The notes under the pieces were generated by a model that was not told the origin of the DNA, searched no databases, and was given only the letters and a program-made list of their open reading frames with translations. A stretch of 60,947 nucleotides of DNA, the filler included, from Nemertoderma westbladi (taxonomy: Eukaryota > Animalia > Xenacoelomorpha), in assembly GCA_032718475.1 (NCBI GenBank). It is 3 parts of 3 records of this genome, joined end to end, with 100 filler letters (N's around TTAATTAATTAA, not from the genome) between each part and the next. Parts side by side here need not be neighbours in the genome. Positions count along the whole stretch, not along the records: positions 27,177 to 45,477 come from JAUCBJ010006283.1; 2 more parts are not named here. One strand, 5' to 3'. The position numbers were made by a program, and so were the translations under genes. Below, one piece after another: positions 16,187 to 55,829 of the stretch; position 1 is the stretch's first letter, and each line of letters opens with the position of its first letter.

Positions 16187-16285
16187 TGTTAGGACCTAAG
16201 AGACTCAACAATATTCCTTACCGGTACCAGAACTAAAAAGTCTGAAACCTAGATTATTATTATTATTAAGCACTGTCTGACTGTG
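16187..16285 (+). repeat. 3' LTR of Gypsy A, truncated and fused to the satellite
   Basis: Preceded by the PPT. Runs into the satellite through shared GACTGTG. Confidence 0.85.
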
Positions 16286-17515
16286 GGTGTTCCGACTCTA
16301 TGGATCGTGGACTGTGGGTGTTCCGACTCTATGGATCGTGGACTGTGGGTGTTCCGACTATATGTATTGTGGCCTGTTGGCGTTCCGACCCTATGGATCG
16401 TGGGCTGTGGGTGTTCCGACTCTATGGGTCGTGGACTGTGGGTGTTCCGACCCTATGGATCGTGGGCTGTGGGTGTTCCGACTCTATGGATCGTAGACTG
16501 TGGGTGTTCCGACTCTATGGATCGTGGACTGTGGGTGTTCCGACTCTATGGATCGTGGACTGTGGGTGTTCCGACTCTATGGATCGTGGACTGTGAGTGT
16601 TCCGACTCTATGGATCGTGGACTGTGGGTGTTCCGACTCTATGGATCGTGGGCTGTGGGTGTTCCGACTCTATGGATCGTGGACTGTGGGTGTTCCGACT
16701 CTATGGATCGTGGGCTGTGGGTGTTCCGACTCTATGGATCGTGGACTGTGGGTGTTCCGACTCTATGGATCGTGGACTGTGGGTGTTCCGACTCTATGGA
16801 TCGTGGGCTGTGGGTGTTCCAACTCTATGGATCGTGGGCTGTGGGTGTTCCGACTCTATGTATCGTGCACTGTGGGTGTTCCGACTCTATGGATCGTGGA
16901 CTGTGGGTGTTCCGACTCTATGGATCGTGCACTGTGGGTGTTCCAACTCTATGGATCGTGGGCTGTTGGTGTTCCGACTCTATGGATCGTGGACTGTGGG
17001 TGTTCCAACTCAATGGATCGTGGGCTGTGTGTGTTCCGACTCTATGGATCGTGGACTGTGGGTGTTCCGACTCTATGGATCGTGGACTGTGGGTGTTCCG
17101 ACCCTATGGATCGTGGACTTTGGGTGTTCCGACTCTATGGATCATGGACTGTGGGTGTTCCGACTCTATGGATCGTGGACTGTGGGTGTTCCGACTCTAT
17201 GGACCGTGGACTGTGGGTGTTCCGACTCTATGGATCGTGCACTGTGGGTGTTCCGACTCTATGGATTGTGGGCTGTGGGTGTTCCGACTCTATATGGATT
17301 GTGGGCTGTGGGTGTTCCGACTCTATGGATTGTGGATTGTGGGTGTTCCGACTCTATTGATCGTGGACTGTGGGTGTTCCGACTCTATGGATCGTGGACT
17401 GTGTGTGTTCCGACTCTATGGATTGTGGACTGTGGGTGTTCCTACTCTATGGATCGTGGACTGTGGGTGGGTGTTCCGACTCTATGGATCGTGGACTGTG
17501 TATGTTCCGACTCCG
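16281..17515. repeat. 31-bp minisatellite array 2, about 40 units
   Basis: Same unit as 4034-4872. Confidence 0.97.
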
Positions 17516-18524: not shown

Positions 18525-19031
18525 ATGGATCATGGACTGTGGGTGTTCCGACTCTATGGATCGTGGACTGTGGGTGTTCCGACTCTTTGGATCGTGGGTT
18601 GTGTGTGTTTCGACTCTATGGATCGTGGACTGTGGGTGTTCCGACTCTATGGATCGTGGACTGTGGGTGTTCCGACTCTATGGATCGTGGACTGTGGGTG
18701 TTCCGACTCTATTTCATCGTGGACTGTGGGTGTTCCGACTCTATGGATCGTGGACTGTGTGTGTTCCGACTCTATGGATCGTGGACTGTGGGTGTTCCGA
18801 CTCTATTTAATCGTGGACTGTGGGTGTTCCGACTCTATGGATCGTGGACTGTGGGTGTTCCGACTCTATGGATCGTGGACTGTGGGTGTTCCGACTCTAT
18901 GGATCGTGCACTGTGGGTGTTCCGACTCTATGGATCGTGGACTGTGGGTGTTCCGAGTCTATGTATCGTGGACTGTGGGTGCTCTGACTCTATGGATCGT
19001 GGGCTGTGGGTGTTCCGACTTTATGGATCGT
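18525..19031. repeat. 31-bp minisatellite array 3, about 16 units
   Basis: Same unit. Confidence 0.96.
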
Positions 19032-23100: not shown

Positions 23101-25250
23101 ATAATATATAAAATATAAAATATATATGGATTATGGATATTTGGTGTCTGAAAGTACTAGTATGCACATGGCTAGCCTCACTATCGGATTCTAAATCTCA
23201 AATATCGTTCTATCCGATTTTCGTTCTGTTTCTATAATTATGTAGAGAAACATTGAGTGCAAGAATTGTTATGAAGAATTAAAAATTTGGCTTAAAAAAA
23301 ATTATGGAATTTTTTTATTAATTTTTAAATAATTTTCAAAAACAAAAATTGAAAATTATGTCTACACAATCTTTGCGCGGATTATTTTATTAATACTAAT
23401 ATCTACTAATATTCTATCCTAATCTACCAATTCTGCATTAGAACTAAAATCGATTGAGTAGTTAAAAAGTACATAGAGAAAGTGTCTCAAAAAAGCCAAC
23501 ATGAGAAAGATGACATGTTATGGAAAAAGAGATTACCGATTCGCCATAAAATTTGACATCAGAAAACACAAAAAGCTATCAATAAAAATCGGATCCCATC
23601 ACCCCCCCCCCCCCCCCCCACCCCCCTTATGGTTAGACCAATTAGTGCAGCAGAAGTTCCAGTATGCCTACACCTCTATGGAAGTCTATGTTGGGCTCTT
23701 TATGTTGGGCATAAAGGAGGTGCCACCTGTGGCTGCATAGACCCCTTTACTAGGGCAAATCTGGTCCTGTAACTAGGACCCCCTTCGCTCTGGGATAAGG
23801 ACGCACTTGGTCCTGGATTATGGACGCATACACTTGGTGCAGGAGTATATGGCCTGACCAGGCAGATGGTGATCTACCAATGGCTGGTCAGGAGTAGAGT
23901 GTTCTCATGTCCACTCTGAGTGCACTTCACTGCGACCTGCACCTGGAGGCAGGGGTACAGGGCAAGTCCCAGCAGATGTGTGATATTTGCCCCGAGAGCT
24001 GACTCGGCAAAAAAGCACCCCCCAACCCCTAGTATGGATTACATTAGTAATGCGGAGGTCAGGCCACTAGAGGCCAGTGTAATTACCGGACACAATTGGA
24101 CTCACAGGCATAAGTTATCTCCTGACCGGCTGCCTGTCTAACCCTGTACTGGAGAGAGAGAGATGCCTGCAATTCTGTGAGTCCCTTTCATTATGACTTT
24201 TCTGGCCCAAACACTGGGTCACCAGGGAGGCCAGATTGTTAGGGGGAGTGGGATTCTGGAGTTGGAAGTTACTCTCATGTTCCACCCCGACCAACCAAAC
24301 CATTATTGGTGAATCTGAGACGAGAGTCTGAGTAGAAGACTCAGACTCTTGTCTGAGTCTGAGACACTGAGTCGAAACCAATTAATTGATCAACTGACTA
24401 TATACATTATTGTATATAGGACCCCTGCAATACTACATAAATTACATTATCTACTACATAAACCAACTTGGTATTGTCCAAACAGGAATTGTTTAACAAA
24501 GACACATCCTTCCTTATGGAATAGATTCATCTGCCTGAATGTGGGAACAAATGTATAGTTGGCACCATCTAGTAAATCAGGGGGCTCAGGGCTCCTCACT
24601 GTGAAAGTGGTTCGAAGTATCACTCGTGTCCGGTGGCTACCGCGACCATGAGTGGATGCGGTAAACAGCTGCCCCGCCGAGTTGTAAACGGCAGTGTTGG
24701 AAGTCCTAAATGGAAAGTTTGGTATGAAAACTCTTCCTCTCATCTGTGAGATTAAAGTGAAAGTTGCTGAAGTGGCGATCAAATCAAATAGTTTACATTC
24801 AGGAACTTCACCATAAATTCCACAAGCGAGTAATAAGCCATCTGGACGAAATAATAACAATCTGATGTAATTCTCGCAGATTATATGGGACGTACAATTA
24901 TACGTTGCCCATTCTAGACTTTTTCCAGTATCATTTATGTTGTTTTTATCCAACAAGAAGATGTGGTTTCTAGCTGAAATTAATAAGTGATTTCCATTGG
25001 ATGTAAATATGATATCATGGAGATTCGGGGATATTTTGGATTTATCGTTTTTGTACCATCGATCCGGTCTAGGGATCCAACTTTGAACCGAGTTAAATGG
25101 CGAATTTAAATGAAGGCGTGGGCTGTTAGGTTGCACATCCAGCGGAAGTATGGTCTCAAAAGAAGTCACAATATTGAGTAGGGAGATAAAAATACAGAAA
25201 CAATGTAGATTATTAAGGAAGTTCATATTGAATATTCGATTGACATACAT
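20160..25250 (-). CDS. Semaphorin (signal peptide + Sema + PSI), about 582 aa; exons 25250-24468, 23081-22811, 22341-22179, 21942-21720, 20468-20160
   Basis: GT-AG introns with consistent phases. Sema motifs: ARNHIF, CENYIR, ACG, YSRIARSC, WFTSFLKADLTC, SSVCVY, VPEPRPGLC, HPLL, GT.HG.LLK. PSI: C...SCAKC...RDPDCWW. The C-terminal end is uncertain. Confidence 0.9.
20611..21124 (-). mobile_element. RTE LINE 3' fragment in semaphorin intron 4
   Basis: Motifs FRATVESVFLYGGE, RRLRFSGHCWR, LLWQP. Ends in a (TAG)n tail. Confidence 0.85.
23640..24322 (+). mobile_element. RTE LINE 5' UTR/ORF-start fragment in semaphorin intron 1
   Basis: 24114-24322 is homologous to 17520-17722. The upstream GC-rich part is inferred to be 5' UTR. 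Confidence 0.65.
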
Positions 25251-27076: not shown

Positions 27077-27176
27077 NNNNNNNNNNNNNNNNNNNNNNNN
27101 NNNNNNNNNNNNNNNNNNNNTTAATTAATTAANNNNNNNNNNNNNNNNNNNNNNNNNNNNNNNNNNNNNNNNNNNN
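27077..27176. other. Assembly gap with artificial six-frame-stop linker
   Basis: N-run, TTAATTAATTAA, N-run; exactly 100 nt. Confidence 0.97.
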
Positions 27177-29267
27177 CTGTTAGTGAGGACCTTGGGGAAG
27201 GGAGGTTGTTAGTGAGGACCTTGGGGAAGGGAGGTTGTTAGTGAGGACCTTGGGGAAGGGAGGTTGTTAGTGAGGACCTTGGGGAAGGGAGGTTGTTAGT
27301 GAAGACCTTGGGGAAGGGAGGTTGTTAGTGAGGACCTTGGGGAAGGGAGGTTGTTAGTGGGGACCTTGGGGAAGGGAGGTTGTTAGTGGGGACCTTGGGG
27401 AAGGGAGGTTGTTAGTGAGGACCTTGGGGAAGGGAGGTTGTTAGTGAAGACCTTGGGGAAGGGAGGTTGTTAGTGAGGACCTTGGGGAAGGGAGGTTGTT
27501 AGTGAGGACCTTGGGGAAGGGAGGTTGTTAGTGGGGACCTTGGGGAAGGGAGGTTGTTAGTGAGGACCTTGGGGAAGGGAGGTTGTTAGTGAAGACCTTG
27601 GGAAAGGGAGGTTGTTAGTGAGGACCTTGGGGAAGGGAGGTTGTAAATGAGGACCTTGGGGAAGGGAGGTTGTTAGTGAGGACCTTGGGGAAGGGAGGTT
27701 GTTAGTGAGGACCTTGGGGAAGGGAGGTTGTTAGTGAGCACCTTGGGGAAGGGAGGTTGTTAGTGAGGACCTTGGGGAAGGGAGGTTGTTAGTGGGGACC
27801 TTGGGGAAGGGAGGTTGTTAGTGGGGACCTTGGGGAAGGGAGGTTGTTAGTGGGGACCTTGGGGAAGGGAGGTTGTTAGTGGGGACCTTGGGGAAGGGAG
27901 GTTGTTAGTGAGGACCTTGGGGAAGGAAGGTTGTTAGTGGGGACCTTGGGGAAGGGAGGTTGTTAGTGGGGACCTTGGGGAAGGGAGGTTGTTAGTGGGG
28001 ACCTTGGGGAAGGGAGGTTGTTAGTGAGGACCTTGGGGAAGGGAGGTTGTTAGTGAGGACCTTGGGGAAGGGAGGTTGTTAGTGAGGACCTTGGGGAAGG
28101 GAGGTTGTTAGTGAGGACCTTGGGGAAGGGAGGTTGTTAGTGAGGACCTTGGGGAAGGGAGGTTGTTAGTGAGGACCTTGAGGAAGGGAGGTTGTTAGTG
28201 AGGACCTTGGGGAAGGGAGGTTGTTAGTGAGGACCTTGGGGAAGGGAGGTTGTTAGTGAGGACCTTGGGGATGGGAGGTTGTTAGTGAGGACCTTGGGGA
28301 AGGGAGGTTGTTAGTGAGGACCTTGGGGAAGGGAGGTTGTTAGTGAGGACCTTGGGGAAGGGAGGTTGTTAGTGAGGACCTTGGGGAAGGGAGGTTGTTA
28401 GTGAGGACCTTGGGGAAGGGAGGTTGTTAGTGAGGACCTTGGGGAAGGGAGGTTGTTAGTGGTGACCTTGATGAAGGGAGGTTGTTAGTGAGGACCTTGG
28501 GGAAGGGAGGTTGTTAGTGGTGACCTTGATGAAGGGAGGTTGTTAGTGAGGACCTTGGGGAAGGGAGCTAGTTAGTGAGGACCTTGGGGAAGGGAGGTTG
28601 TTAGTGAGGACCTTGGGGAAGGGAGGTTGTTAGTGGGGACCTTGAGGGAAGGGAGGTTGTTAGTGAGGACCTTGGGGAAGGGAGGTTGTTAGTGAGGACC
28701 TTGGGGAAGGGAGGTTGTTAGTGGGGACCTTGGGGAAGGGAGGTTGTTAGTGAGGACCTTGGGGAAGGGAGGTTGTTAGTGGGGACCTTGGGGAAGGGAG
28801 GTTGTTAGTGAGGACCTTGGGGAAGGGAGGTTGTTAGGAGGACCTTGGGGAAGGGAGGTTGTTAGTGAGAACCTTGGGGAAGGGAGGTTGTTAGTGAGGA
28901 CCTTGGGGAAGGGAGGTTGTTAGGAGGACCTTGGGGAAGGGAGGTTGTTAGTGAGAACCTTGGGGAAGGGAGGTTGTTAGGAGGACCTTGGGGAAGGGAG
29001 GTTGTTAGTGAGAACCTTGGGGAAGGGATGTTGTTAGTGAGGACCTTGGGGAAGGGAGGTTGTTAGTGAGGACCTTGGGGGAGGGATGTTGTTAGTGAGG
29101 ACGTTGGGGAAGGGAGGTTGTTAGAGAGGACGTTGGGGATGGGGAGGTTGTTAGTGAGGACCTTGGGGAAGGGAGGTTGTTAGTGGGGACCTTGGGGAAG
29201 GGAGGTTGTTAGTGAGGACCTTGGGGATGGGGAGGTTGTTAGTGAGGACCTTGGGGAAAGGAGGTTG
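27177..29267. repeat. 29-bp minisatellite (GTTGTTAGTGAGGACCTTGGGGAAGGGAG)n, about 72 units
   Basis: Seen directly; truncated by the gap. Confidence 0.97.
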
Positions 29268-31068: not shown

Positions 31069-34000
31069 CTTCAAACAGAAGTATTAGAACCAAGTCGACC
31101 AGTCGCATAGCATCGAGGACGCATCTACCGTCGCCGGTGACGGATAGAGCGACGGATTCGCAGAGGTTATGTCGGAGTAGACTGTGAGTGATTCCCGGCG
31201 AACCGCGGCACAGGGTACTCAGTAGACTCACTATCGTACTGATATTCTAGAAAACAAACTCACATAGTTAATATGCGAAACCCATACATACATACATACA
31301 TACATACACCATGCCCTGGAATATAACGTATTATTCAAACATTTTCTACAAATCTTAATTAATTAATGCAATTTGAAACAGACAGTTAGATGTCCTAAGT
31401 AGTAGAGGTTTGGCCGGCTCGGCGACAGTTAGATGTCCTGACTTCTTAATGGGTGAAGCAGAAATTATGTTTTATCTTTCAATGTTTAACAACAAAAGCG
31501 TTTGACAATTTGTCTCCGTAGATATTGCACTAGTCGCAGTGAATTTGAATATGAATTTGTTATATTCCATCACAACACATTCCACAGTTTTATAAATATA
31601 TTTACAAGATTGGCAACCGAAACCATGCACCCTTCTGCCGTCATTGCCTATCTCTTGTCGCTCTCGCTTCAACAACTAAATTTTCCAGGTCAATTTTTAA
31701 TCAAATACCTGTCATTAAAATTTACCCCGCCAGGGTGTATATATAATAATATTATGATGCCGGAATTTTTGTTACCATGAAGACGGAATTTTCAAAGTTT
31801 TAAAAGTGTCTTTTGCGAAATCGCACCCTCGGTATCGTGGCCATTCTTCAGATTAGTCGTAATTTTTTCATATCATTAGAAAGCTTACGTTGCAAGGATT
31901 CCAAATATGTAACAATATCTGAATTTCGTTGAGAAACAGATGAGATATAGGCGTTCAAAGATTGCAAGAAGTATCATTCGCTGTAGACAATTAATTCCAT
32001 TGAATAAATACACAAAATTCTAGAAGGTATTATTTATTTTATGAGTAGGTGGGCAACAGCCGCGGTATACCTACCTATATAAATTACCGAAGCGGTTCCC
32101 CCAAGCTTGACACTAGAACAAAGCCGCCCCCGCTTAGCAGGACATTGCTTTCGCCGTGAGGACCAGCCAGTGCATAATCTTGTGCTTTGGCGGCCTCATG
32201 GAGTGAACAAGCATGGTGGACAGCACATGACATTCTTGAGACGCATCTTAAAGGACACTGGCCTTAAAGATACGGATGATCTAGCAAATGTCATGGGTGA
32301 TAGGGAGTTGTGGCGGCGCATTTGTGTCGATAAGCCGGCACATCATTGTTAATATATATGTAATATATATATATAATGCAGCTGCAGTGCATCGTGTCGA
32401 TCGTAGTAGTAGTATACCTATACAATATCGCTATTGCGTAGCTATTCATACATAAACCAAATGTTTCAGAACATTGTGTATTTATTTAATATAATAAATT
32501 GGAGTTGAGATGTGATTATTGAATTATTATTATTATTAAATAGAATAAATGATTATAGCTAAATAATCCCCAGTTAAATAATAACTAGAGTGTAACTGGT
32601 GCAATGGAAGGGGAAGCAAATACATGCAGCTTTCGAAAGCCCGTATATCAGCAATTTTCAAACCAAATTCAATGAATCCGTGGACGGCCGGCTTTCTAAC
32701 AGTATCAACAAATCACTATAGAGTATAAGGTTAAATAACAAGTGCTGTATAACTGGTGCAATATCGATGGAAATACCTTTTTTAAACGCTTGTAGCTAAA
32801 GAATGAAAGCAAAAATAAAAGTTCTGGCTCACCCACTCAGTGGTCGGGAGGTGAAACTATCTTTGTTTTAAATTCCATGCGATCTCATTAATATTTGTAT
32901 AATTTTTGGGGGGTGAGGGGGGGGGGGGGAACCAGTTGAGGTACCTGAATAACGCATTCCAGGACATGGTGTAAATTTAGTACGATTTACTTAAGTTCTT
33001 TTTACTTTAGTTGATTAATAGAGTGTGAGTTGGTAGTCAATTTCCATTTGGTAGGAGAAAAGAACGCAACGACCAAAGTAACTACTATCAACTAATGTGT
33101 TATCATACATAAGTGGTAAGTAGGCTGTTGCTAGGATACAATAATACGGTGAAAATACATTGATTGGACTGTTGCTATGCGTGTTAGCATTATTGTACTA
33201 AAGGTAGAGTAAGGTTGTGTGTGCAGTGCATACCTTCTCAGTACATTGTATTTAGGCCTATTATCTATACTACACTCAAGGTAGGCCAGACTGCCAAGCC
33301 TATCAGCCTGTAGCTGTCTGTGATTCATGTGCCCTAAATTATTTCGGTTTCAAACATTAGACTCCAGACAGCCAGATAAAATTATGACATCACACCCCTA
33401 AATTTCAACCTTAAATTGGTAATCCATAGGCCACTTCCGTATTTCTTCCTACTGCACCTACTGTCTGACTGTCTTACATACAGTACCGGTAGACTGACAG
33501 ACATTCTGATATTCCTGTCTGCCTGTATTCTGCCTCGCGGGCCGGTGTCTTAGATACACCTACATTAACTGTGACATTACGGACCACCCGCACTACGTAT
33601 TATCGTTTCCTTTAAACCTATCTCCATCCACCATCACCACAACGCATACGAACTGAATAACAGAAATGAGCAGCGGAGTTCATCTGTGGAGGTGGGGGGC
33701 GCGACTCAACGGGACTCAACGCTATCGCCTGTTAAACCTACCGGTACATCCTCACGGAAACAACGCCATATGCGCGCCGACTATCGTGGTAAGCAGGTCC
33801 CACTCGGGTATTTACGGAGAGAGTGGGAGCGTGAACGAGCAGCCACTACGACGTTTGGTGGGATTAACTAAAGTATTCGCAGTAGTTGTTCCGGCTATAA
33901 TAGTTGGGGGGTTTATGAGCAAGGAGGGGGCGGCGTGGTTGGAAGATAATGATATATTTGTACCCGAGGAGGACGACGATTAATAGATCCGTAGTGATTG

Positions 34001-37000
34001 GATATATAATTTTGCATATCCTAGTTGCCAAGACTCTGAACTCCTAGTCTAGTACAATGCTAGCTGACTAGTGTACAGTAGTAGACATAGTTGTAGAACG
34101 CAATAATTTTTATTGTCCATTTTTATCCTTTTTTTGTCAATTTTTTTTGATTTTTTATGTCATCCAAAAGTCTAATGTTAGGTTCCATGCTACCGGTTTC
34201 TCTACTGCTGTTCTCTCAGGCTATCAGTACCGGTTAGTATATATATAGCACTATTTTGCTGTATTGTATGTACAGATGTAGGTATAAAGCAGGTATTTCT
34301 GTATTTTAGTACCGGTACCGGCACTGGTACTGCTATAGGCCTACTGTGTAGCCTACCATTTAAATACGGTAATGGTAGGCCTACCGGTTGTGCTAATAAA
34401 TTTTAAATAATTGATAGGCGAAACTGGATTGCAGGATTGTGGAAAATGTGGATATACCTTTCACATAATTTAGGCCTTACTGTATTAGTTTTATAATCAA
34501 TAATGGATCATGACTACTGTCTGAGTAGTGTTACGGATAGCGGCTCCACTACTTCCAACAGCACAGAAGGCCCGCCTCTGTAACCTGCCCCTTTCCCTCA
34601 ATTAGTTAAATGATCGTTTATTGTTTTGGTTAGAAAATCCCGTCTCTGTAACCTGCTCCTTTCCCTCAATTAGTTAAATGATCGTTTATTGTTTTGGTTA
34701 GAAAGTCCCGTCTCTGTAACCTGCTCCTTTCCCTGATTTGGTAAAGTGACTGTTTATTGTTTTGGTTAGAAAATCCCGCCTCTGTAACCTGCTCCTTTCC
34801 CTCAATTAGTTTAAGTGATCGTTTATTGTTTTGGTTAGGAAATCCCGCCTCTGTAACCTGCTCCTTTCCCTCAATTGGTAATGTTATCGTTTATTGTTTT
34901 GGTTAGAAAATCCCGCCTCTGTAACCTGCTCCTTTCTCTCAATTGGTAATGTTATCGTTTATTGTTTTGGTTAGAAAATCCCGTCTCTGTAACCTGCTCC
35001 TTTCCCTCAATTAGTTAAATGATCGTTTATTGTTTTGGTTAGAAAATCCCGTCTCTGTAACCTGCTCCTTTCCCTGATTTGGTAAAGTGACTGTTTATTG
35101 TTTTGGTTAGAAAATCCCGCCTCTGTAACCTGCTCCTTTCCCTCAATTAGTTTAAGTGATCGTTTATTGTTTTGGTTAGGAAATCCCGCCTCTGTAACCT
35201 GCTCCTTTCCCTCAATTGGTAATGTTATCGTTTATTGTTTTGGTTAGAAAATCCCGCCTCTGTAACCTGCTCCTTTCTCTCAATTGGTAATGTTATCGTT
35301 TATTGTTTTGGTTAGAAAATCCCGTCTCTGTAACCTGCTCCTTTCCCTCAATTAGTTAAATGATCGTTTATTGTTTTGGTTAGAAAATCCCGTCTCTGTA
35401 ACCTGCTCCTTTCCCTGATTTGGTAAAGTGACTGTTTATTGTTTTGGTTAGAAAACTCGGCCTTAACCTGCTCCTTTCCATCAATTGGTAATTGTTTTTG
35501 GCTTTTTAGAGTCTTTTTACCACAGGCGCATATGGAAATCTATCTCATAGTCTATAAATCATGGAATCATGGAATGTTTTGGCACAGGCATAGTGAAATC
35601 AACTGTCTGACAGTCCAGAAATGAAGTTTGAAGACAGTGACAGTTTGAAGAAATACATACATAAAAAGTGACAATAAAAGTCATTAAATGGACAACAAAA
35701 GTCATTATGCATAATTCGTAAAAAAAAAGTGACAAAAAAAGTCAAATAAATTGACATAAAAAATCACTGCCGTTGTAGAAGACAATTAATTACTAATTAA
35801 TAGCAGCTGATTAATAGTATTGTAGTACAATACGGTGTATGACCTTCTTACTACTATTACTAGAGTACTGCCGTTACTGTAATATAGATGGTGGACATAA
35901 CTTATGGTTTATTACACCATGTCCTGGAATATAGTGTATTAATTCACGTACTCGACCCCCCTCCCCTACAAATCTTAATGAGATCGTGTAAAATTTGATA
36001 CAGAGTTAGTGTGAATTTGTCCTCTCGTTGTCTGACTGAATATCATTTTCGCCTTGAACACAATATTGCAGCGTTACACCGCAGCTACCCTAATCTAAAG
36101 GTCGGTTTACATATTACAACTCGCTTATCATGTTGGTTCATGTAAACAGGGGAAACACCTCGTCGCCGAAAACATTTGCTGTGGAAATTGCTGTTTTTAT
36201 TTAGAATTTTCGGCATTGGATCGAAAAAGATGGCCGTGTTCCAGCAACTTGCTTGATTTGCTTGTTGTTGTAAGTTAAACAAAAGAAACAGCGAAAAGTG
36301 GAAAATTGGTGACAGTGTGATAAGCTTTAGGCTTTTATACAACTTTTGAACTTCAACCAAATTCATATTTCTTCACGGATTTTTTCTGACGGGTTGATTA
36401 TTTTACACTCCCCCCATTCCAGGACATGGTACACTGTAGTAATAGTACTAATGTTGGATTATATCAGGAGTTCAGTGTACAAGTTGGTATTTTTTCATGT
36501 GCCTTTATCCAGTATTTTTTTTATAGTCTTTATTCGTTGCATTTTTAAGTACTGCACTGTACCGTATTGTCCGTATTGCGTAATAACATTTTAGGACTTT
36601 GTATGCACAGCACAACTTGTTAATGGAGGATAGAGACAGGGGGGGGGGGGGGGGGGGACTGGACGCAAAACCCGCCTTGGCGAATTAATATCCCGCCTCA
36701 AAGTTAAATTCTCAATTTAGGGAAAAGAGCAGGTTATAGTGGCACGTTATTTTAATCAAAACAATAACAGGTTACAGTTTTATTTTTGAGAGTAATCACA
36801 ATCAGCTGTTATTTGCGTCGAATTTCCCCTGGAGAGAGATTATTTTTATTGCGTCCAGTTCCCCCCCCCCCCCCCCCCCCCCCCTGCTGGTATGGAATAA
36901 CAACTTAATCTCAAGGGACCAAGCTACTATAGACTTTGACTTTTCGTTATAATTTCAAATTCGTCAAATAAAATTAAGTGTAAATCTTATGAATTTAATC

Positions 37001-40000
37001 TATAATGTTTGTGCATTCAAGTGCTATTTATTTAAAATTACAATACTTGATATCAATCATAGCAAGTCAAGTTATTTATTTTATTTTAATGACGTCATTC
37101 ATATGGAGTTACATAAAGTCCATATTTAATAATAAGTTTTAATAATTCCGTTCCGATTGGGACCAAAACCATGGAATTTAGATTGACATTGAGCTATAAC
37201 AGTTATTAAAAGAAAACAATTTTTTTTGAAACCCGGGTATTTCTAGTTTGTTTCCTTCCACCTAAACGGTACTCGTTGTTCTTGGTTCTTTTGAGCGAAT
37301 ATAATACCGATTGTATGAAAAAGGTTAGTTTAGTTCATCATATCAGAATATTTTACTTTAAAATTTAAATAAAATTATTCGGACATGGTGAAATGAATCA
37401 ACTTTTTTTATAATGATTATAATGCGATTAGATTATATTATTATAAAAAAATACTAACAGTAAATCAGCGTTTTTTTCTACATTTGTTAGTGAGTCGGTA
37501 GAGTTGGTAGAGTTGGTAGAGTTGGTAGAGTTGGTAGAGTTGGTAGAGTTGGTAGAGTTGGTAGAGTTGGTAGAGTTGGTAGAGTTGGTAGAGTTGGTAG
37601 AGTTGGTAGAGTTGGTAGAGTTGGTAGAGGTGGTGGTAGAGTTGGTAGAGTTGGTAGAGTTGGTAGAGTTGGTAGAGTTGGTAGAGTTGGTAGAGTTGGT
37701 AGAGTTGGTAGAGTTGGTAGAGTTGGTAGAGTTGGTAGAGTTGGTAGAGTTGGTAGAGTTGGTAGAGTTGGTGAGTCGGTAGAGTCGGTAGAGTCGGTAG
37801 AGTCGGTAGAGTCGGTAGAGTCGGTAGAGTCGGTAGAGTTGGTAGAGTTGGTAGAGTTGGTAGAGTTGGTAGAGTTGGTAGAGTTGGTAGAGTTGGTAGA
37901 GTTGGTAGAGTCGGTAGAGTCGGTAGAGTCGGTAGAGTTGGTAGAGTTGGTAGACTAGTTAAACTAGTTAGAATTATAAATATTTCTAAAACTAAATATT
38001 GGAAATAACAAATTTTATTTAAATGTAAATTTTACTGTAGATCTAAAATTTGAAATTAAAACATTGATACAAATTCAAAATTTAGCATCACCGACATTCA
38101 CAGAAGTCAAATCATTCAAACTCTAAATCCGATTCGTCTATACCATGGGTGCACTAGGGCTTCCCACTTTATCTCATCGGACTGGTGATGTTACTTAGTT
38201 GACACTGGGAATGGAAACGTAATCCACGATTTGTTAATCTCCTGGTTCGTGTAGTTTTAACTTTTAATATCGATCTGACTAACTAACTAGTTGTAATTAC
38301 GTTAACTGGGTTACTGGAACCTGCTCTGTATCTACTGGCCGATTACTGGAACCTGCTCTGTTTCTACTGGCCTATGTTCACCTGACGCCATGCCATGGGG
38401 ATATTTAAATAGTAATTATTATAAATAAAAATTCGCCATTCTTTGGGAATTGTTTTTGGTTTTCTAAACAAATGTTCTAATTGTTTAGAAACTTTTCACA
38501 ATGAATATTATAAAACAAATCGCCGCAGTAAATAACAGTGAACCCGACTAAACCGACAAATGACTAACAAAACCCGCTTATTCATTGCAGTTAACAAAAT
38601 AAACAATAAGTATAAACAAACGTTTAAAAAAAAAAACAGAAAGTTATACCTTTTTTGTTTAATTTCGTGCCATTTTATGTTCTATTTCCAAATATCGAAA
38701 CCTTTTATGTTATTGCCGTATATCTATTGCATTATAATCTTATTGGATATTCTATGCGATGCGTCTTGTCATTGCGTTTGATTTACATAACGCTGACATT
38801 AAAATGTTGACTTTTTTTTGTTTCCCACCAACCTGTACTGTTTGTTTCCCATAAACCTGTTTATTTCCCACCAACCTGTACTGTTTGTTTCCCATAAACC
38901 TGTTTGTTTCCCACCAACCTGTGTACTGTTTGTTTCCCATAAACCTGTTTGTTTCCCACCAACCTGTACTGTTTGTTTCCCATAAACCTGTTTGTTTCCC
39001 ATAAACCTGTACTGTTTGTTTCCCATAAACCTGTTTGTTTCCCACCAACCTGTACTGTTTGTTTCCCATAAACCTGTTTGTTTCCCACCAACCTGTACTG
39101 TTTGTTTCCCATAAACCTGTTTGTTTCCCAGTCCACCAACCTGTACTGTTTGTTTCCCATAAACCTGTTTGTTTCCCACCAACCTGTGTACTGTTTGTTT
39201 CCCACCAACCTGTACTGTTTGTTTCCCATAAACCTGTTTGTTTCCCACCAACCTGTACTGTTTGTTTCCCATAAACCTGTTTGTTTCCCACCAACCTGTA
39301 CTGTTTGTTTCCCATAAACCTGTTTGTTTCCCAGTCCACCAACCTGTACTGTTTGTTTCCCATAAACCTGTTTGTTTCCCACCAACCTGTGTACTGTTTG
39401 TTTCCCACCAACCTGTGTACTGTTTGTTTCCCATAAACCTGTTTGTTTCCCACCAACCTGTGTACTGTTTGTTTCCCACCAACCTGTACTGTTTGTTTCC
39501 CATAAACCTGTTTGTTTCCCACCAACCTGTGTACTGTTTGTTTCCCATAAACCTGTTTGTTTCCCAGTCCACCAACCTGTACTGTTTGTTTCCCATAAAC
39601 CTGTTTGTTTCCCACCAACCTGTACTGTTTGTTTCCCATAAACCTGTTTGTTTCCCAGTCCACCAACCTGTACTGTTTGTTTCCCATAAACCTGTTTATT
39701 TCCCACCAACCTGTGTACTGTTTGTTTCCCATAAACCTGATTATTTCCCACCAACCTGTACTGTTTGTTTCCCACCAACCTGTTTGTTTCCCATAAACCT
39801 GATTATTTCCCACCAACCTGTGTACTGTTTGTTTCCCATAAACCTGTTTGTTTCCCACCAACCTGTGTGTTTCCCATAAACCTGTTTGTTTCCCACCAAC
39901 CTGTTTGTTTCCCATAAACCTGTTTGTTTCCCATAAACCTGTTTGTTTCCCACCAACCTGTACTGTTTGTTTCCCATAAACCTGTTTATTTCCCACCAAC

Positions 40001-41562
40001 CTGTGTACTGTTCGCCTCTGGAGTTGCATTCGGTGTAGTCTTTACCGCAGTAGCAGCACTGGGTGTCGGCATTCCGCAGTTACCCAGTCGTAACAACAGC
40101 TGATCAATCAACTGACTTTCGGCCAGCGGGGCGGGATCTAAGCCCCTGCGGGTGAACCGATCAGCCAAGGAAGCGAAACACCTGAGGGCCCCATCCGCAA
40201 CCTAAACGCAACATACAGCTCAGAGTATTGTGAGTTAAGGTGCAATTCAGTCTTCATTTCTTTTCCTACTGCTCTCAGACTTTTTTTTTGAAAGGTTACA
40301 CCAGCCAGGCTGGCATTTGAATTTATTTGCACATTTCAGCTAAAAATTGTATCATACATTACACAGGGGTCAATATAACATACAAGCTTAAAAAAACACA
40401 GCAGAAATATGCTAGTTCGGATAAAAGTTATACGCAAAGAATACATAACAAATACAATCAACTAATTTAACACATTGGACACAATAATTCAATCGGTTAT
40501 ATCGGTTAATCGGTTATATATAACAATAAATAAGTTATATGTTCACTGTTCATTCGCTCCTCGGTTGTATTTAGTGTATGCTTGATACGAGAGAATTTAT
40601 AGGAGGAACTGGGAAGTTGGCAATACATTGCTTGAAAACAGAACCCAGGCCAGAGTAAGAGCATGGATCGATGGATCAGACAGATATACATTCTGCCGAA
40701 GCAGACTGAACTAACCTGGTAGTCATCATGCTGCAGCAAGGTAGACAATGAGTCCACGCACTGTGGCAGCGACGGGTCTGTTGGTTCCACCTTACCACAG
40801 AGTCGGGTTACTACGGACATAGCGGAGTGGAGAGTGTCTTTGTGTATGATGTTGCCATGGTTGCGTATAAATGTGAGACAACAATTGAGACCTCCGGACT
40901 CAAATACAACTCCTGAATTAATGGGACATAATAATAGGGCCTAAATATCAATCACAATTGTCATGCGGGGTGAGCGACTAAGCAAGCGACCTGAGCATAT
41001 GGATACCGCTCCAACCGCTGTTTCAACCGTTGTCTGTGCGTCTGTCGGGTCGGTCGGTCGGTCTGTCTGCAGGTCGGACTGTCGCCTAATGTTTGAAGGC
41101 AAATAACTCAGTCAATATTATATGATTAAATCAAACCAAACTTCGCAAATTATTAAATTACAATTATTAATTATTAGCAAAATCCAAGTTAATTTTTACA
41201 TGAAATAAAACGTTTGAAGAAATGTGATAATAATGTAATTTAAGTGAATTTTCATTTATTATATGAACATGCGATATAGAGTTTAGATATGTCTACCTGA
41301 TTCTCGAGTGCAAACCAACTCCAGCACTTTGACACATTGTTCGGCGAGATCCTTACTGGTTCTATCCGAGGCGTCGATAATAACCAGACGGTTACACAGA
41401 GCGGCTACCGCTCCTTCCACGGCCACTACACGTCTGGTACACTCGGCACTCACGTCCAGGTAGTAAGTAATAGCACGAGCTGTAACCTCGAGGACGTTCT
41501 CAGGGGCTAAATCATCGGTAAGGATCTTACACAGAGCAGGTAGGAACGTGCGAGGTGGACAC
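31069..41562 (-). CDS. HECTD1: HECTD1 E3 ubiquitin ligase, partial; exons 41562-41297, 40912-40716, 40201-40001, 31246-31069
   Basis: [13 protein letters not shown]...[21 protein letters not shown]...[17 protein letters not shown] / VFE.GGLNC...HKDTLHSAM / [26 protein letters not shown] / [15 protein letters not shown]...LLFEG matches the HECTD1 N-terminus. GT-AG phases are consistent. The first coding exon and all downstream exons are not in this contig. Confidence 0.95.
31307..32971. mobile_element. Non-autonomous DNA transposon (TIR CACCATGYCCTGGAAT, TA flanks) containing an RTE insertion
   Basis: Inverted termini at 31307 and 32956-32971. The left end is similar to the copy at 35915. Confidence 0.7.
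32107..32412 (+). mobile_element. RTE LINE 3' end
   Basis: RLAGHCFR...LVLWRP...DRELWR and a (TAG)n tail. Possible TSD GTATACCTA. Confidence 0.85.
33666..33983 (+). CDS. SMDT1: Essential MCU regulator EMRE; intronless and nested antisense in a HECTD1 intron
   Basis: Basic N-terminal presequence, SG.V..QP, TM helix [21 protein letters not shown], acidic tail [17 protein letters not shown]. Confidence 0.93.
   Translation: MSSGVHLWRWGARLNGTQRYRLLNLPVHPHGNNAICAPTIVVSRSHSGIYGESGSVNEQPLRRLVGLTKVFAVVVPAIIVGGFMSKEGAAWLEDNDIFVPEEDDD
34571..35500. repeat. 68-bp minisatellite with a 5-unit (about 341 bp) higher-order repeat
   Basis: Unit CCCGYCTCTGTAACCTGCTCCTTTCCC...TTGTTTTGGTTAGAAAAT. Related inverted copies at about 36710-36780 and 50823-50915. 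Confidence 0.92.
35915..36431. mobile_element. MITE, same family as 31307-32971
   Basis: Termini CACCATGTCCTGGAAT ... ATTCCAGGACATGGT. Confidence 0.8.
37492..37954. repeat. 9-bp tandem repeat (GAGTTGGTA)n
   Basis: Seen directly. Confidence 0.97.
38819..40012. repeat. Modular 19-28-bp minisatellite overlapping the HECTD1 donor site at 40001/40000
   Basis: Sense-strand modules AAACAGTAC(AC)AG|GTTGGTGGGA and AAACAG|GTTTATGGGA. Confidence 0.95.
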
Positions 41563-43540
41563 CTGTGTGAGATAAAGGGGGAAAATGTGGTGGACACCTG
41601 TGTGAGATAAAGGGGGAAAATGTGGTGGACACCTGTGTGAGATAAAGGGGGAAAATGTGGTGGACACCTGTGTGAGATAAAGAGAGGAATGTGGTGGACA
41701 CCTGTGTGAGATAAAGATAGGAATGTGGTGGACACCTGTGTGAGATAGAGGGGGAAAATGTGGTGGACACCTGTGTGAGATAAAGGGGGAAACTGTGGTG
41801 GACACCTGTGTGAGATAAAGAGAGGAATGTGGTGGACACCTGTGTGAGATAAAGGGGGAAAATGTGGTGGACACCTGTGTGAGATAAAGAGAGGAATGTG
41901 GTGGACACCTGTGTGAGATAAAGGGGGAAAATGTGGTGGACACCTGTGTGAGATAAAGAGAGGAATGTGGTGGACACCTGTGTGAGATAAAGAGAGGAAT
42001 GTGGTGGACACCTGTGTGAGATAAAGGGGGAAACTGTGGTGGACACCTGTGTGAGATAAAGGGGGAAAATGTGGTGGACACCTGTGTGAGATAAAGAGAG
42101 GAATGTGGTGGACACCTGTGTGAGATAAAGAGAGGAATGTGGTGGACATCTGTGTGAGATAAAGAGAGGAATGTGGTGGACACCTGTGTGAGATAAAGAG
42201 AGGAATGTGGTGGACACCTGTGTGAGATAGAGGGGGGAATGTGGTGGACACCTGTGTGAGATAAAGGGGGAATGTGGTGGACACCTGTGTGAGATAAAGA
42301 GAGGAATGTGGTGGACATCTGTGTGAGATAAAGAGAGGAATGTGGTGGACACCTGTGTGAGATAAAGATAGGAATGTGGTGGACACCTGTGTGAGATAGA
42401 GGGGGAAAATGTGGTGGACACCTGTGTGAGATAAAGGGGGAAACTGTGGTGGACACCTGTGTGAGATAAAGAGAGGAATGTGGTGGACACCTGTGTGAGA
42501 TAAAGGGGGAAAATGTGGTGGACACCTGTGTGAGATAAAGAGAGGAATGTGGTGGACACCTGTGTGAGATAAAGGGGGAAAATGTGGTGGACACCTGTGT
42601 GAGATAAAGAGAGGAATGTGGTGGACACCTGTGTGAGATAAAGAGAGGAATGTGGTGGACACCTGTGTGAGATAAAGGGGGAAACTGTGGTGGACACCTG
42701 TGTGAGATAAAGGGGGAAAATGTGGTGGACACCTGTGTGAGATAAAGAGAGGAATGTGGTGGACACCTGTGTGAGATAAAGAGAGGAATGTGGTGGACAT
42801 CTGTGTGAGATAAAGAGAGGAATGTGGTGGACACCTGTGTGAGATAAAGAGAGGAATGTGGTGGACACCTGTGTGAGATAAAGGGGGAAACTGTGGTGGA
42901 CACCTGTGTGAGATAAAGGGGGAAAATGTGGTGGACACCTGTGTGAGATAAAGAGAGGAATGTGGTGGACACCTGTGTGAGATAAAGAGAGGAATGTGGT
43001 GGACATCTGTGTGAGATAAAGAGAGGAATGTGGTGGGCACCTGTGTGAGATAAAGAGAGGAATGTGGTGGACATCTGTGTGAGATAAAGATAGGAATGTG
43101 GTGGACACCTGTGTGAGATAAAGGGGGAAACTGTGGTGGACACCTGTGTGAGATAAAGAGAGGAATGTGGTGGACACCTGTGTGAGATAAAGAGAGGAAT
43201 GTGGTGGACACCTGTGTGAGATAGAGGGGGGAATGTGGTGGACACCTGTGTGAGATAAAGGGGGAATGTGGTGGACACCTGTGTGAGATAAAGGGGGAAA
43301 ATGTGGTGGACACCTGTGTGAGATAAAGAGAGGAATGTGGTGGACATGGACACCTGTGTGAGATAGAGGGGGGGGGGGTATGGTGGACATGGACACCTGT
43401 GTGAGATAAGGGGGAATGTGGTGGACATCTGTGTGAGATAAAGAGAGGAATGTGGTGGACATCTGTGTGAGATAAAGAGAGGAATGTGGTGGACAGTGGA
43501 CACCTGGGAGGTATGTGGTGGACATTAGTGTGAGATAAAG
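41554..43540. repeat. 33/34-bp minisatellite overlapping the HECTD1 acceptor at 41563/41562, about 60 units
   Basis: Sense-strand unit ACATTYYYYCYCTTTATCTCACACAG|GTGTCCACC. Confidence 0.97.
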
Positions 43541-43589
43541 GGAGTTACAGTATGTGTCATCGCCTTGTGGAAAATAATGAGTTATTTTG

Positions 43590-43682
43590 AATTGCTGGCG
43601 TAGCTTTGCACCAAGCCGGCGCAAGATTATTTGCACTTGGCGCCGCGTTCGGCGCAGAAAATAAAACTTTTCAATAGGGGCC
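43590..43682. mobile_element. Terminal fragment of the Harbinger-like element
   Basis: Near-identical to 55740-55828. Ends ...TTTCAATAGGGGCC. Confidence 0.65.
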
Positions 43683-45477: not shown

Positions 45478-45577
45478 NNNNNNNNNNNNNNNNNNNNNNN
45501 NNNNNNNNNNNNNNNNNNNNNTTAATTAATTAANNNNNNNNNNNNNNNNNNNNNNNNNNNNNNNNNNNNNNNNNNNN
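45478..45577. other. Assembly gap with artificial six-frame-stop linker
   Basis: N-run, TTAATTAATTAA, N-run; 100 nt. Confidence 0.97.
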
Positions 45578-48500
45578 AGTTCGGCAATCAAAGCAATATT
45601 GCAATATACAGATATAAGAATAACAATATTATATATATAACAGCAAAGCAGGCATTTGCAATTAAGCGGTATTATCAGTTAGCTGTTACCGACAATAACA
45701 AACAGTCGGCATCACTTTATAACAAAACCAGTAAAAGGTCAACATGCAAACTCACGGTATTATATATATAAGCAATATTAACGGCATATTAGGCCTTAGG
45801 CAGTTAAGGTTATGAATCAGTTACCTACAGCAGTACAGACAACAGTAACCGGTATATTCGGATTCTGTATTGCCGTAAAACAGCTGATCCACCACACTAA
45901 TGCATAAAAGCATACTGTAGAAAATTATAATACTATACCCCATCACCATTTTAAAGTAGTAAAGCAGTTTTGGATTGCACATACCCCCACGTCGCGACAT
46001 ATTTTCTTTCGTCGCGAAACTAAGCAGGATGCTTAACGTGGCGTCCATAAGACGTTATATAGACGGATGGGGTAGACTGAGTTTGACACTTGGATGATAC
46101 CACCGGCGATGAACAGGGAATCATACCCGATGATGCGTTGGTAACACTAGGAATTGGGGCATCTGAAACCTCCAAGGGTATAAGAAGATTTCTTGTGGTT
46201 ATTCTTCCACGAAGAAGAATTTCGACTGCTCGAACGACACCATCACGTCCTGTTAATAGTTTGTGGACCCGAGCTAAACGCCATTGTCCTCGGGGTGCAC
46301 GTTCTTTAACAAGAACAAGATCTCCCAGGTTGGGAGTGTTATATGACTGTTGAGCAGTTCTCCAGGTACGCAAAGATGCCAGATACTGTTGTAACCAAAT
46401 CTTCCAGTAACTTTGAGCCAACCGGTCTCTTGAGAGCAGGCCTCGGCGAAGCTGGGAAGATTCGACAATACGATAATCGACTGATGAATCAGGTGGTGGA
46501 CTACCATATAAGAAATGGCCTGGAGTTATAGCTAGACAATCATTAGGATCTTTAGAAACAGCACTTAAAGGTCTAAGGTTAATTACTGCTTCCACCTCAG
46601 CAGTCACCGCCTCTAATTGTGCTCGAGATAATTTACGTTTCGTTCGTTGATGCTGCTCTACCTTAATGAGAAAGTTAGTAGAATCATCAAGTTCATGTCC
46701 CTGAAGAGATCCAAAAGCTTTGAGATTAGGGTAGCGAGTATTGTGGATAAACCGGCAAATCCAAGCTAAGATACGAACAGGGTGGTTTATAGAGGAATAT
46801 TTATGCAGGTCTAGCAAATTCCAATCATGGGTAAAGGGAATAGATACAATGGTTAGTAATTGTAGAGGTGGAGAAGGCTCATCCGGCCAGAAGGATTCAG
46901 GGTATAAGATAAAAGGTGGACCATGCAGGTATAGGTCATTTGTCGATAATGATGATAAGCTGCATCCTCGAGAAGGAACATCGGCTGGGTTCTGTTCTGA
47001 ACATACATATCTCCATTGACTAGGAGTAGTAAGTTTACTAATTTCTAATAACCTGTTGTTGACAAATACATCACGTTGGGATGTACCCTTATGGATACGA
47101 GCAAGAGTACAGGTAGAATCAGACCAGAGATGAATATATTGTGGTATAAACAGATACTCAACAACATGGTGTGCAAATCGGGCTCCAATCAGGGCAGCCA
47201 TTAATTCAAGTCGGGGTGTGCTTAATCTCAATTTTATAGGTGCAACTCGAGATTTGGCAAAGTATATAGTGGGTTGGTAAGAAGGTTGAGTTACATAAGC
47301 AACAAATGCATATGCATAGGATGATGCATCACAAAAAATATGCAGTCTGCAGTTGCCATTCAGGTTTATACTTCGAGGGAAGGGGATAATAATACCAACA
47401 TCAACCACCCAGTTATTCCATTCCATCTGAAGATCATGAGAGAGTGGTTGACCACTTAGTTCCAGAATCACTGGACTTCTGAACTATTCGACGAACCAGC
47501 AGAATCCAAGGGCTTAGCAAGCCTAATGGATCAAAAACCTGAGCATAGGTTCTCAAAATCTGCCGACGAGTAAGTGAGTTTGGCGAAGATATATGAGAAG
47601 TATCTACATAAATGATGTCTCGTGACATATCCCATGATAAGCCCAAAATCCTAGTAGGATTGATAGTAATTCGGAGATTCATCCCCGCAACAGCAAAGAG
47701 TTCTTTAACAAGTTCATAAAATGCCATGGCAGAATCTGGATTATCACTTCCATACAAGAAATCATCACAATAAAGTGAGATAATAATTGCCTTAAATAAC
47801 TCAGGATTAGGGGGAGCTTTTGTATGAATGTGGTGGCGAATAGTAGAATGAAGTAAGTAAGAACTCGGTTTGAGCCCAAACGGAATTCGTTTGAACTGAT
47901 AAGACTCTCCTTTCCAGATGATTTTTACCCATTGACGGTCTTCGGGATGTATTTCAATCTGATGATATGCTGCTTCTATATCCGTAACTACAACATATGG
48001 ATGGTGGCGAGATCTTAAAAGTACATCAACCATTGAAGCTAATAAATTTGGTCCCACATCAAGGCAAGAATTTAGAGTAACTCCATTACAATCAGGAGAA
48101 GAGCCATTAAAAACGACACGGTATTTGCGTGAAGAAAATACACCATGATGTGGGAGGTAGAATCCAATATCCTTACCAGTATTAGCAGGCTCAATTATGC
48201 CATCCATTGACAATTTGGCAAATTTCTCTTCGTATATAGCCTTTGTTTGAGGATTTAAGGATGAAGTAACTTTATGTTGGCGAGAAACAACTGCACTATA
48301 ATTAGTTACAGGTCTCTGATTTCCAAGGAAATGTAATCGGACTTGATAATGAGGTGGATCCTCTTTAGAGATTACAGGAATAATTTCAGGTACAAAATGA
48401 ATCTCACTCTCTTTAATTCCAATAGTTTCTAAGTTCCATAGATTGGACACTTCTATAGGTTCTGTTAATATTAAGGAAGGAGATAAACCCATATTAATGC

Positions 48501-50810
48501 AGGGGCTTACAGTAATTGGGGAAGAAGGGCCAGTAAGTAAACGCCCAAAGAAAGTATCAACTATAGTAGGAGCATTTGGATACCGATAATAGGCTGTCAA
48601 AGCCCATATTTGGTCAGCACCAATAATAAGGGATATATCACGCTGACCACCATAAAAATTATCGGCCCAATTAGATAAATGGCAGATTGAAGAAAACATA
48701 GTTGGTAGATACTCCTGCTTAATGGAAGGACAGAGTTTGTTGGCTGTCCATGTGGTGAGGTCAATTGGTTCAGAAAAGAATTGGCTGAAAAGTTGAAATG
48801 ACACTAAATTGGAGTCATGTGTAGTAATATGATCTCCAAATGAACCCGTCGACATTATTCTGGTGTCTATAATGGGTAACTGGTAATTATTAGCAAGGTC
48901 GGATTTGATGTAGGTTCTCTTGGACCCATCATCTAAATAAACATGGACCCACTGGCCACTATCACAAGAAGGTGAATAAAGATAGGCCATTGCCAGCTTA
49001 ACAAAAACTTGATTATCTTGGCTGGAGTGAGTTGGCATCACTGGTGTTATTGACATGGCAGGACCACCAGATCGATTCCCTGATGGAATCCAACTAGTAT
49101 CTAAAGCAGGAGCAGATGGCTTTGACTGATCCCAAGAAGGCTTGGTTGAATAATTGGCTTTTGATACTGGAGGTACATACGCCTGTGAGGAAGGGAGCCT
49201 GGTATTACCAGAAGCTTGGTGGGTTTTAGGATCACTAGAAGAGGTTGGGGTCTTTGGATCACGGCACTTTTTAAAACAAAGTAATGAGTTATGCCTCCCA
49301 CCACAATTATTGCAATTATATTTGGATTGGCAAGCTATAGACTTATGAGGTCCAAAGCAATTGACCGGTACAAAGTTTCTTTGTTCTGATAAAGGTCCCC
49401 TTAGCATCAATGGACTTAGAAAGAAAATTTAGACAATCCTTAAGTCTATGGGGATGACCCTGACATGAAAGACAAGTTAGTTGCAGAAGAGCATTTTCAG
49501 TGACAGGCAATGATGAAGTAGTTAGAAGCTTGGGTAATTATTTTACCCTAGTATTCTGAATAGGAGGTTTAGATAAATTGACCTGAGAATAAGCCAATGA
49601 CTCCCTGGTTTCTAATTCTCGTCTAATGAACTCCAATAAAAGATCTAAGTTAAATCTTTCACTGGGATTGTTTCTATTCCACACAATAATTAAATCCTGT
49701 GGAAGTTTTTGCTGTAGAAGTGGTGCTAACAGTAAAGAGGTGAGGTCTAAAGATAAAGCAGAATTGTCACTGGAGGTAACACTAGACTGCACCTCAGAAG
49801 ATAACTGACGAATTTCCCTCAAGGCACTTTCAAAAATATCCATCATTTTGCGAAATGATTTAAGGTCTCCCTCCTTTATGGCTGGAAGGGAGAAAAGCTG
49901 ACTGGCATAGAGACCTATTAAAAGATGGGGGTTGCCATACCGACGTTTTAGGACTTCAATAGCAGTTTTATAATTGGCCGAGGTTGCTGGAAAACCAAAG
50001 GCATCCTTGGCTTCTCCCTCCAAGCTGTTACACAAATAAATAAATTTCTGGACATCACTCAACCCGGGCCTTAAATGAATAAGCGCTTGAAATTGGTCCC
50101 AAAAAGGTCTCCAACTAAAATAATCACTACTAAAAGTTGGTAAAGAAATTTTCGGAAGACCACGAGTTGAGTTATTAGTCCCACTGGCTGACTGGGTTTC
50201 ATCACTATGATGTGAACTGGCAAGGCCTACCTTGTCTAAACGAGAACGAACCCGGCGCATTTTGAACAAATAGCAGTCGAGATCACCAATATGTGTTGAC
50301 GTCTTAGACTCATAATGGCCTAATTCGCTAAGTTCAGAACTTAAAGAATTTAATAAAATTAACTGGCGTTCACCAAGTTCAATCTGATAGGCCAGTTCAT
50401 CTGAATCAAGTTCAGATTCATTTTGTTTAACAATATGTTCAAAATCAGTAAGTAATTTAGATGCTTTTTGGCATTCTGTTTTCCACCTCCCTTTTATAAA
50501 CTCTATCTGATCAATATTATCATCATCTATGTTGTCACCCTTACCCCCACGGTTTTGAGTTTCACCATCTGCCATGGTACTGATGGTTGCACATGCACAT
50601 AAGTAGTAGTAGTAGTAGTAACAGTCAGTTAAATGATGGTAATTGATTAAGAATGAAAATCAATAATAAATATGCAGAATTCCGAAAAAAATCACATTCA
50701 AATTTGGAAACTTTCCAAATCGGGATATCCACATTTAGCGGTTTATATACTCCAGTGTACTGTAGATGATCAGACTGACGGTTATCGTTCATATGCGTAC
50801 CGATGGTGTT
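45578..50810 (-). mobile_element. BEL/Pao LTR retrotransposon 1 (integrase core deleted; 5' LTR not seen)
   Basis: gag LPKISLPTF...WRPFWDQF...LEGEAK (50575-49538). Cys knuckles, protease LDDGS, YLPHHGV, RT LYCDD, FDPLG (49410-47434). RNase H FCDAS, PRLELMAA, WSDS, NPAD and C-terminal RPL...TPGHFL (47471-46020). PPT GGGGG, then an LTR starting TG at 45981 that runs into the gap. Confidence 0.93.
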
Positions 50811-50939
50811 ACAGTAGTGGTGTTTTCTAACCAAAACAATAAACTAATCTCCATTACTTAATTGACGGAAAGGAGCAGGTTACAGTGGTGGGCTTTTCTA
50901 ACCAAAACAATAAACATTATCTCAATAACATAGGGTATT

Positions 50940-55359: not shown

Positions 55360-55829
55360 TTCTATAGATGAGAGTAATTCATCAAAAGGATGAAATTGAC
55401 ATGCTCGTATATGTAATTAAAAAATTTCCTTTATAACATCTGCCCGCAAATCTTGATAAAGTTTTCCGATAACGCCGTGCAACAACTTTTTTTGATTGAT
55501 CGGGTGAACCCATCGGCGTTTATTTCGCCGCCTACTGTAGAAGTCTGACTGACACGCCGAACACGTTTGGCGCAGCATTTCAACTTGTGCTCGGAGCTGG
55601 TGCAGAAATGTGCTACACCTGGTAATGTGCTGATAAAGAGCCGGCGCAGGGATATCAATGAATGTGCTCGCTGGGACAGCCAGCGTCATGAGCGTAGCAT
55701 CATTAATGATAGAGATGATGAGCTCCGGTGCGATTTTTGAATTGGTGGCGTAGCTTTGCACCAAGCTGGCGCAGGATTTTTTGCACTGGCGCCGCGTTCG
55801 GCGCAGAAAATAAAACTTTTCAATAGGGA
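55360..55829 (-). mobile_element. PIF/Harbinger transposon 5' remnant
   Basis: RRRNKRRWVHPINQ...G...KLYQDLRAD...FFNY..MSISSFDELL (joined across frameshifts) is a Harbinger transposase N-terminus. The terminus is shared with 43590-43682. Confidence 0.75.

Follow-up and report, generated by a model that had tools for sequence, protein, structure and literature searches.

Minisatellites of the type termed mirages have been reported from the amphioxus genes Adh3, BflGb6 and BflGb9 (globins), troponin C and PGBD5. The accounts given in PMC3087553 and PMC3902484, both of which cite Canestro 2002 on the subject, describe undisturbed splicing and length polymorphism between alleles, and edge units are reported to escape homogenisation (PMC3087553). 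Human CBS 844ins68 has a duplicated junction at the exon start; according to PMC2630376, splicing strongly prefers the downstream site, next to the exon, and yields normal mRNA. For the human F7 IVS7 37-bp VNTR, use of only the exon-adjacent donor is described, the identical pseudo-sites, in-frame ones included, being competent but silent, and older duplicated-site experiments cited in the same paper conflict on which copy is used (PMC1557585). One narrow search of part of the literature yielded no genome-wide survey of mirages in invertebrates.

The array described here was found in a window of 60,947 nt (the whole stretch of DNA that was analysed) at the 5' edge of an exon of HECTD1. It belongs to the mirage type, of which it is a large example, because it consists of tandem minisatellite units, spans the true exon boundary, keeps the AG in its intronic copies and has a homogenised interior. 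From the sequence and its analysis we consider it likely, at a probability of roughly 0.8, that the array is a lineage-specific amplification of a splice junction, that splicing uses only the last AG, and that the upstream copies are tolerated decoys.

The following features define the host gene.

27077-27176 and 45478-45577, no strand: identical 100-nt spacers (44 N, a 12-nt core carrying stops in every frame, 44 N)
31069..31246, minus strand: HECTD1 exon D, 178 nt (tblastn, refined ends)
40001..40201, minus strand: HECTD1 exon C, 201 nt (tblastn, refined ends)
40716..40912, minus strand: HECTD1 exon B, 197 nt (tblastn, refined ends)
41297..41562, minus strand: HECTD1 exon A, 266 nt, corresponding to homolog residues 47/48-136, PF25579
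41563..41564, minus strand: AG of the exon-adjacent acceptor, presumed functional; the intron interrupts HECTD1 codon 47 in phase 2

Exon A matched Pfam PF25579 (TRIP12-like N-terminal repeats) and gave 278 protein matches at E <= 1e-10; the named proteins among the best 120 were mostly HECTD1, and identity to homologs was 75-84%. A PDB sequence search with exon A gave 0 matches. Exons were mapped by tblastn with 12 of the best 120 proteins, three of which, by their length, covered only all or part of the first two to four exons. In 12/12 tested cases the homologs aligned from residue 48 on to the exon starting at 41561, with the numbering offset in two proteins that have longer N-termini. The original prediction had taken the last unit of the array for the HECTD1 acceptor, and this was borne out both by the homologs, which align from exon A on in tblastn, and by the same AG position in 61/80 related loci. 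In most of the intron-bearing relatives the match breaks off at query residue 79, which suggests that an intron lies there; exon A is without it.

The fragment lies on the 18.3-kb piece between the two spacers. Pieces across the spacers need not be linked neighbours. The intron upstream of exon A is longer than 3.9 kb, its donor exon lies outside the window, and no exon for residues 1-47 adjoins the 5' end of the array. Profile searches of the window found neither the exon for residues 1-47 (best E 0.17) nor the 150 residues after exon D (best E 0.13); the window lacks the first coding exon as well as the ankyrin exons (after residue ~330). These missing parts would agree with a dead or partial gene copy, in which splicing would not constrain the array, but both of them fall beyond assembly spacers, and the four exons are bounded by GT-AG, agree in phase and form one open frame, together with the high identity of exon A. 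A dead copy is therefore regarded as extremely improbable.

The acceptor array was delimited as follows.

41563..43544, minus strand: acceptor mirage minisatellite with 56 intact AG sites, which bound 55 complete units
43526..43550, minus strand: 5'-most degenerate copy, AG lost at 43526, preceded by unique flank

TRF reported a head-to-tail repeat at 41554-43495 with a period of 34, 56.2 copies and 91% matches, extended by a degenerate tail to 43544. Intact TCTCACACAG sites on the minus strand number 56, that is 55 upstream sites and the terminal one, in which the G of the AG is at 41563 and the first exon base at 41562; AG dinucleotides in 41563-43560 total 63. A tandem array of the 3' splice site had been predicted with about 60 copies, and the array itself was confirmed, but with 56-57 copies.

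Most units are 34 or 35 bp long, and 12 unit types occur among the 55 complete ones. Each unit comprises approximately 15-17 nt of intron end and approximately 17-21 nt resembling the exon start. Identical first 9 exon nt had been expected in every upstream unit; they are exact at the start of 45/55, whereas the other ten deviate (seven with A for G at the start, two diverging after 7 nt, one with another substitution). The AG is intact in 55/55 interior copies. The likeness to the exon start extends to about +21 to +25 and is interrupted by a 4-nt deletion. Beyond the first 9 nt it is suggestive only, because a variant present in three copies agreed with the exon start at 20/21 aligned bases (shuffle p = 0.009), whereas the commonest unit gave a shuffle p of 0.14.

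The interior of the array is homogenised, and the odd-length and dead units sit at its 5' edge. The unique 5' flank contains TGTAAC, whose A lies 20 nt upstream of the AG position of the dead copy; by the branch-point consensus this motif looks like the original branch point, located outside the amplified unit. The dead copy and the unique flank are likely the remnant of the original intron end. The AG of this copy may have been selected against as a competing acceptor, or it may simply have decayed at the array edge. The junction at 41558-41568 forms a short palindrome (ACAC, AG, GTGT), which, as speculation, might favour slippage. Directly upstream of the array, a 95-nt element (43585-43679) was found with a 95% identical copy 12 kb off at 55735-55828; it is likely a transposon end.

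A 19-unit periodicity and a 562-nt exact internal repeat at 651-nt spacing show either block duplication or an assembly effect. The copy number could accordingly have been inflated if a 19-unit block of a shorter real array had been duplicated in silico, and the piece is only 18.3 kb long and ends in another array at the spacer. Such inflation is considered quite improbable, given that the 12 unit types, interspersed variants and degenerate edges are typical of real minisatellites. Approximately 37 copies would remain without the duplicated block, so that the count would change and the nature of the array would not.

The age of the intron was assessed in 80 related metagenome loci, many of them redundant (56 distinct junction strings among the 75 with the motif). 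In 61/80 loci an AG stood one base ahead of the Cys codon, and the upstream exon with its GT donor at matching phase was found in 33 of these 61. The other 19 loci comprised 11 contiguous with upstream coding sequence, five without the motif and three others (two contiguous with a variant motif, one truncated). Judged from these sequences, the intron position is old. Junction copies upstream of the acceptor, sought at <=4 mismatches in loci with >=40 nt of upstream sequence (upstream lengths 77 to 2987 nt), numbered 0 in each of the 59 testable loci, compared with 56 in the window. In the 75 motif-bearing loci, TRF reported no array over the acceptor. Because the intron position is shared and the junction copies are absent in relatives, the array is read as a lineage-specific addition to a conserved intron. 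Origin of a new intron by AG-GT duplication was ruled out by the intron position common to 61/80 loci.

Amplification probably began with duplication of the stretch from about -17 to +21 around the junction, with loss of 4 nt of the exon part; slippage or unequal exchange would then have multiplied the duplicated junction.

How the proximal site is chosen had been called unexplained. This was overstated insofar as exon-adjacent use has been reported in amphioxus, F7 IVS7 and CBS 844ins68, although the molecular basis is still debated there. Within the array, the pyrimidine tract is the same in all copies, and 53/56 sites, interior and last alike, have a branch-point-like CTCAC 38 to 41 nt upstream, within the preceding unit. 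Predicted accessibility was 0.067 for the last AG and 0.048 on average for the other AGs (range 0.016-0.114). RNA structure as selector of the last AG was ruled out, as predicted accessibility does not differ. All AGs of the array were predicted to be mostly paired. The last AG bears no array-internal mark, and we therefore infer that it is selected from outside the array. This lack of a mark, the intact AGs of all interior copies, the long intron with its donor exon outside the window and the conflicting duplicated-site experiments weigh against exclusive use of the last AG. Exon definition and proximity to exon A would set the choice; only the last AG would give the 266-nt exon with the full exonic sequence next to the donor. 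Leakage would fall mainly onto the nearest copies, and the AGs at -35 and -70 would shift the frame to a stop 210-230 nt before the exon end, with predicted decay.

The consequences of decoy use were derived by translation. The 55 intact upstream acceptors are distributed over the frames as 20 in frame, 22 at +1 and 13 at +2. The proposal that in-frame AGs would insert repeat peptide and others would shift the frame was correct: a frameshift to a premature stop is expected from 35/55 sites. Of the seven nearest upstream AGs, only that at 41668 is in frame, and its use would add 35 residues; from each of the other six, translation would run into a stop that lies 210 or 230 nt short of the exon A end. 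Such premature stops would trigger nonsense-mediated decay in animals.

No stop triplet occurs in 41554-43495, as had been claimed for the three sense frames; a single TAA lies at the degenerate 5' edge and is formed by the same letters that destroy the AG of the dead copy. The three open frames amount to one unit without TAA, TAG or TGA, because units of 34/35 nt cycle one frame through all phases. Stop-free units were obtained in 35% of 100,000 base shuffles and in 64% with the junction fixed. Among intron 34-mers, 182/391 pyrimidine-rich and 829/6839 unselected ones were stop-free, and by consensus 14/38 array strands in the window were. A stop is created in the main unit by 8/102 substitutions and 0/34 single deletions. 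The stop-free state of the array is within chance. Selection against stops was not detectable at chance rates of 35-64% and with so few mutations able to make a stop. The significance attached to the open frames was accordingly not upheld, the shuffles reproducing them and the frames not being independent in units of 34/35 nt. The lack of stops in the unit would simply follow from an acceptor sequence rich in C and T and poor in G. Open frames of 650-750 codons run from the array into the real exon, and the array can therefore mislead gene prediction.

These data bear on regulated or copy-number-dependent use of in-frame upstream acceptors, by which at least 35 repeat residues would be inserted after residue 47 and the frame would be kept by selection. 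The 20/55 in-frame sites, the frame open from 43544 through exon A and the intact interior AGs would all allow this. However, the openness is at chance level, the in-frame share is about one third, the unit length is not a multiple of 3, and the nearest two decoys shift the frame. Spacing at the array site was identical, with no insert, in 90/92 homologs scored (the other two had 21-23 extra residues), which likewise argues against such use. It is considered quite unlikely.

Duplicated AGGT or proto-splice sites have been associated with intron gain (PMC3265369; PMC4974935; PMC3443670), a duplicated AGGT being able to found an intron (PMC3265369), and zero-nucleotide ratchet points are known from recursive splicing in Drosophila (10.1101/006163; PMC8605326). 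In line with both, a GT directly follows the AG at 49/56 intact sites of the array, and its AG-GT junctions might serve as ratchet points or micro-exon boundaries, with re-splicing to the last AG giving normal mRNA. The array junction, however, has 6/9 matches to the U1 consensus compared with 7, 8, 8 and 8 at the four real donors. In those related loci whose exon likewise begins with G (5 of 33), the last two bases of the preceding exon are AT or AC and not AG, and a regenerated donor would therefore likely be weaker still. Moreover, the true exon start bears the same GT, and no re-splicing is expected there. This alternative appears very improbable, and use of the last AG alone is retained as the preferred reading.

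A second array of this kind adjoins exon C.

38817..40010, minus strand: donor mirage of exon C, made up of 54 donor-like CAG-GTT sites and starting with the exon C donor itself

It consists of two interleaved sub-units. All 53 decoys lie behind a TAA at 39988-39986, which is in frame and follows the true exon C donor by 12 nt. That this second mirage is closed by a stop favours the reading of the acceptor copies as tolerated decoys. Mirages are thus present at 2/8 splice junctions of the HECTD1 fragment, one at an acceptor and one at a donor.

Further repeats were recorded in the window. A 29-bp array of 72 copies (27178-29267, minus strand) contains a pyrimidine tract, AAG-GT and CTAAC and runs to the spacer, where the next HECTD1 exon is expected; it is possibly a third mirage, of the acceptor kind. 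With its GT, the Gly codon begun in exon D would be completed. Later codons mismatch R[KQ]AL of homologs, and each unit contains a TAA. A 68-bp array of 13.6 copies (34571-35491) has dispersed inverted relatives at 36707-36767 and 50822-50916. It was rejected as a mirage because no exon adjoins it and related sequence occurs at these two places, and it looks like part of a repeat family. The same 31-bp unit occurs in three arrays at 4034-4872, 16279-17513 and 18525-19031 (27, 40 and 16 copies), which suggests a mobile satellite-bearing element. A Pao/BEL-type LTR retrotransposon with three open frames (DUF1759, RT, Peptidase_A17, DUF5641) lies at 46020-50659 on the minus strand. Open frames at 20163-25250, minus strand, are presumably semaphorin-like, as judged by their motifs. 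Their exon edges carry no tandem array.

It would be an unlikely outcome for a share of HECTD1 transcripts to use in-frame units or recursive AG-GT steps, with array length then setting how much of this conserved E3 ligase is made or which N-terminus it has. Were upstream acceptors used, 56 near-identical acceptors with 12 unit variants would constitute a natural ruler of 3' splice-site choice versus distance, and measurable use would link minisatellite length to the isoform output of a ubiquitin ligase.

In comparison with the described systems, the HECTD1 array shares duplicated AG-GT junctions with intron gain and recursive splicing; unlike in intron gain, the intron is old (61/80 loci), the duplication lies inside it, and the GT context is weak. 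As in CBS 844ins68, an intron/exon junction is duplicated at the exon start, but CBS has two copies of 68 bp and no array. F7 IVS7 also has a minisatellite spanning an exon/intron boundary; it is a donor repeat with 5-9 copies, whereas the HECTD1 acceptor array has approximately 56, and the direct counterpart of F7 IVS7 is the donor array at 38817-40010. The agreement with amphioxus extends to the homogenised interior, the divergent edge units and the retention of AG or GT in most units, and the HECTD1 unit length is within the range of Adh3 (10-72 bp). The copy number differs, with approximately 56 in HECTD1 compared with 3-6 in BflGb6 and 2-7 in PGBD5, and the host animal lineage likely differs from amphioxus. 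Tandem copies of intron end plus exon start, as in BflGb6, and donor-boundary copies, as in BflGb9, are both found in this one gene.
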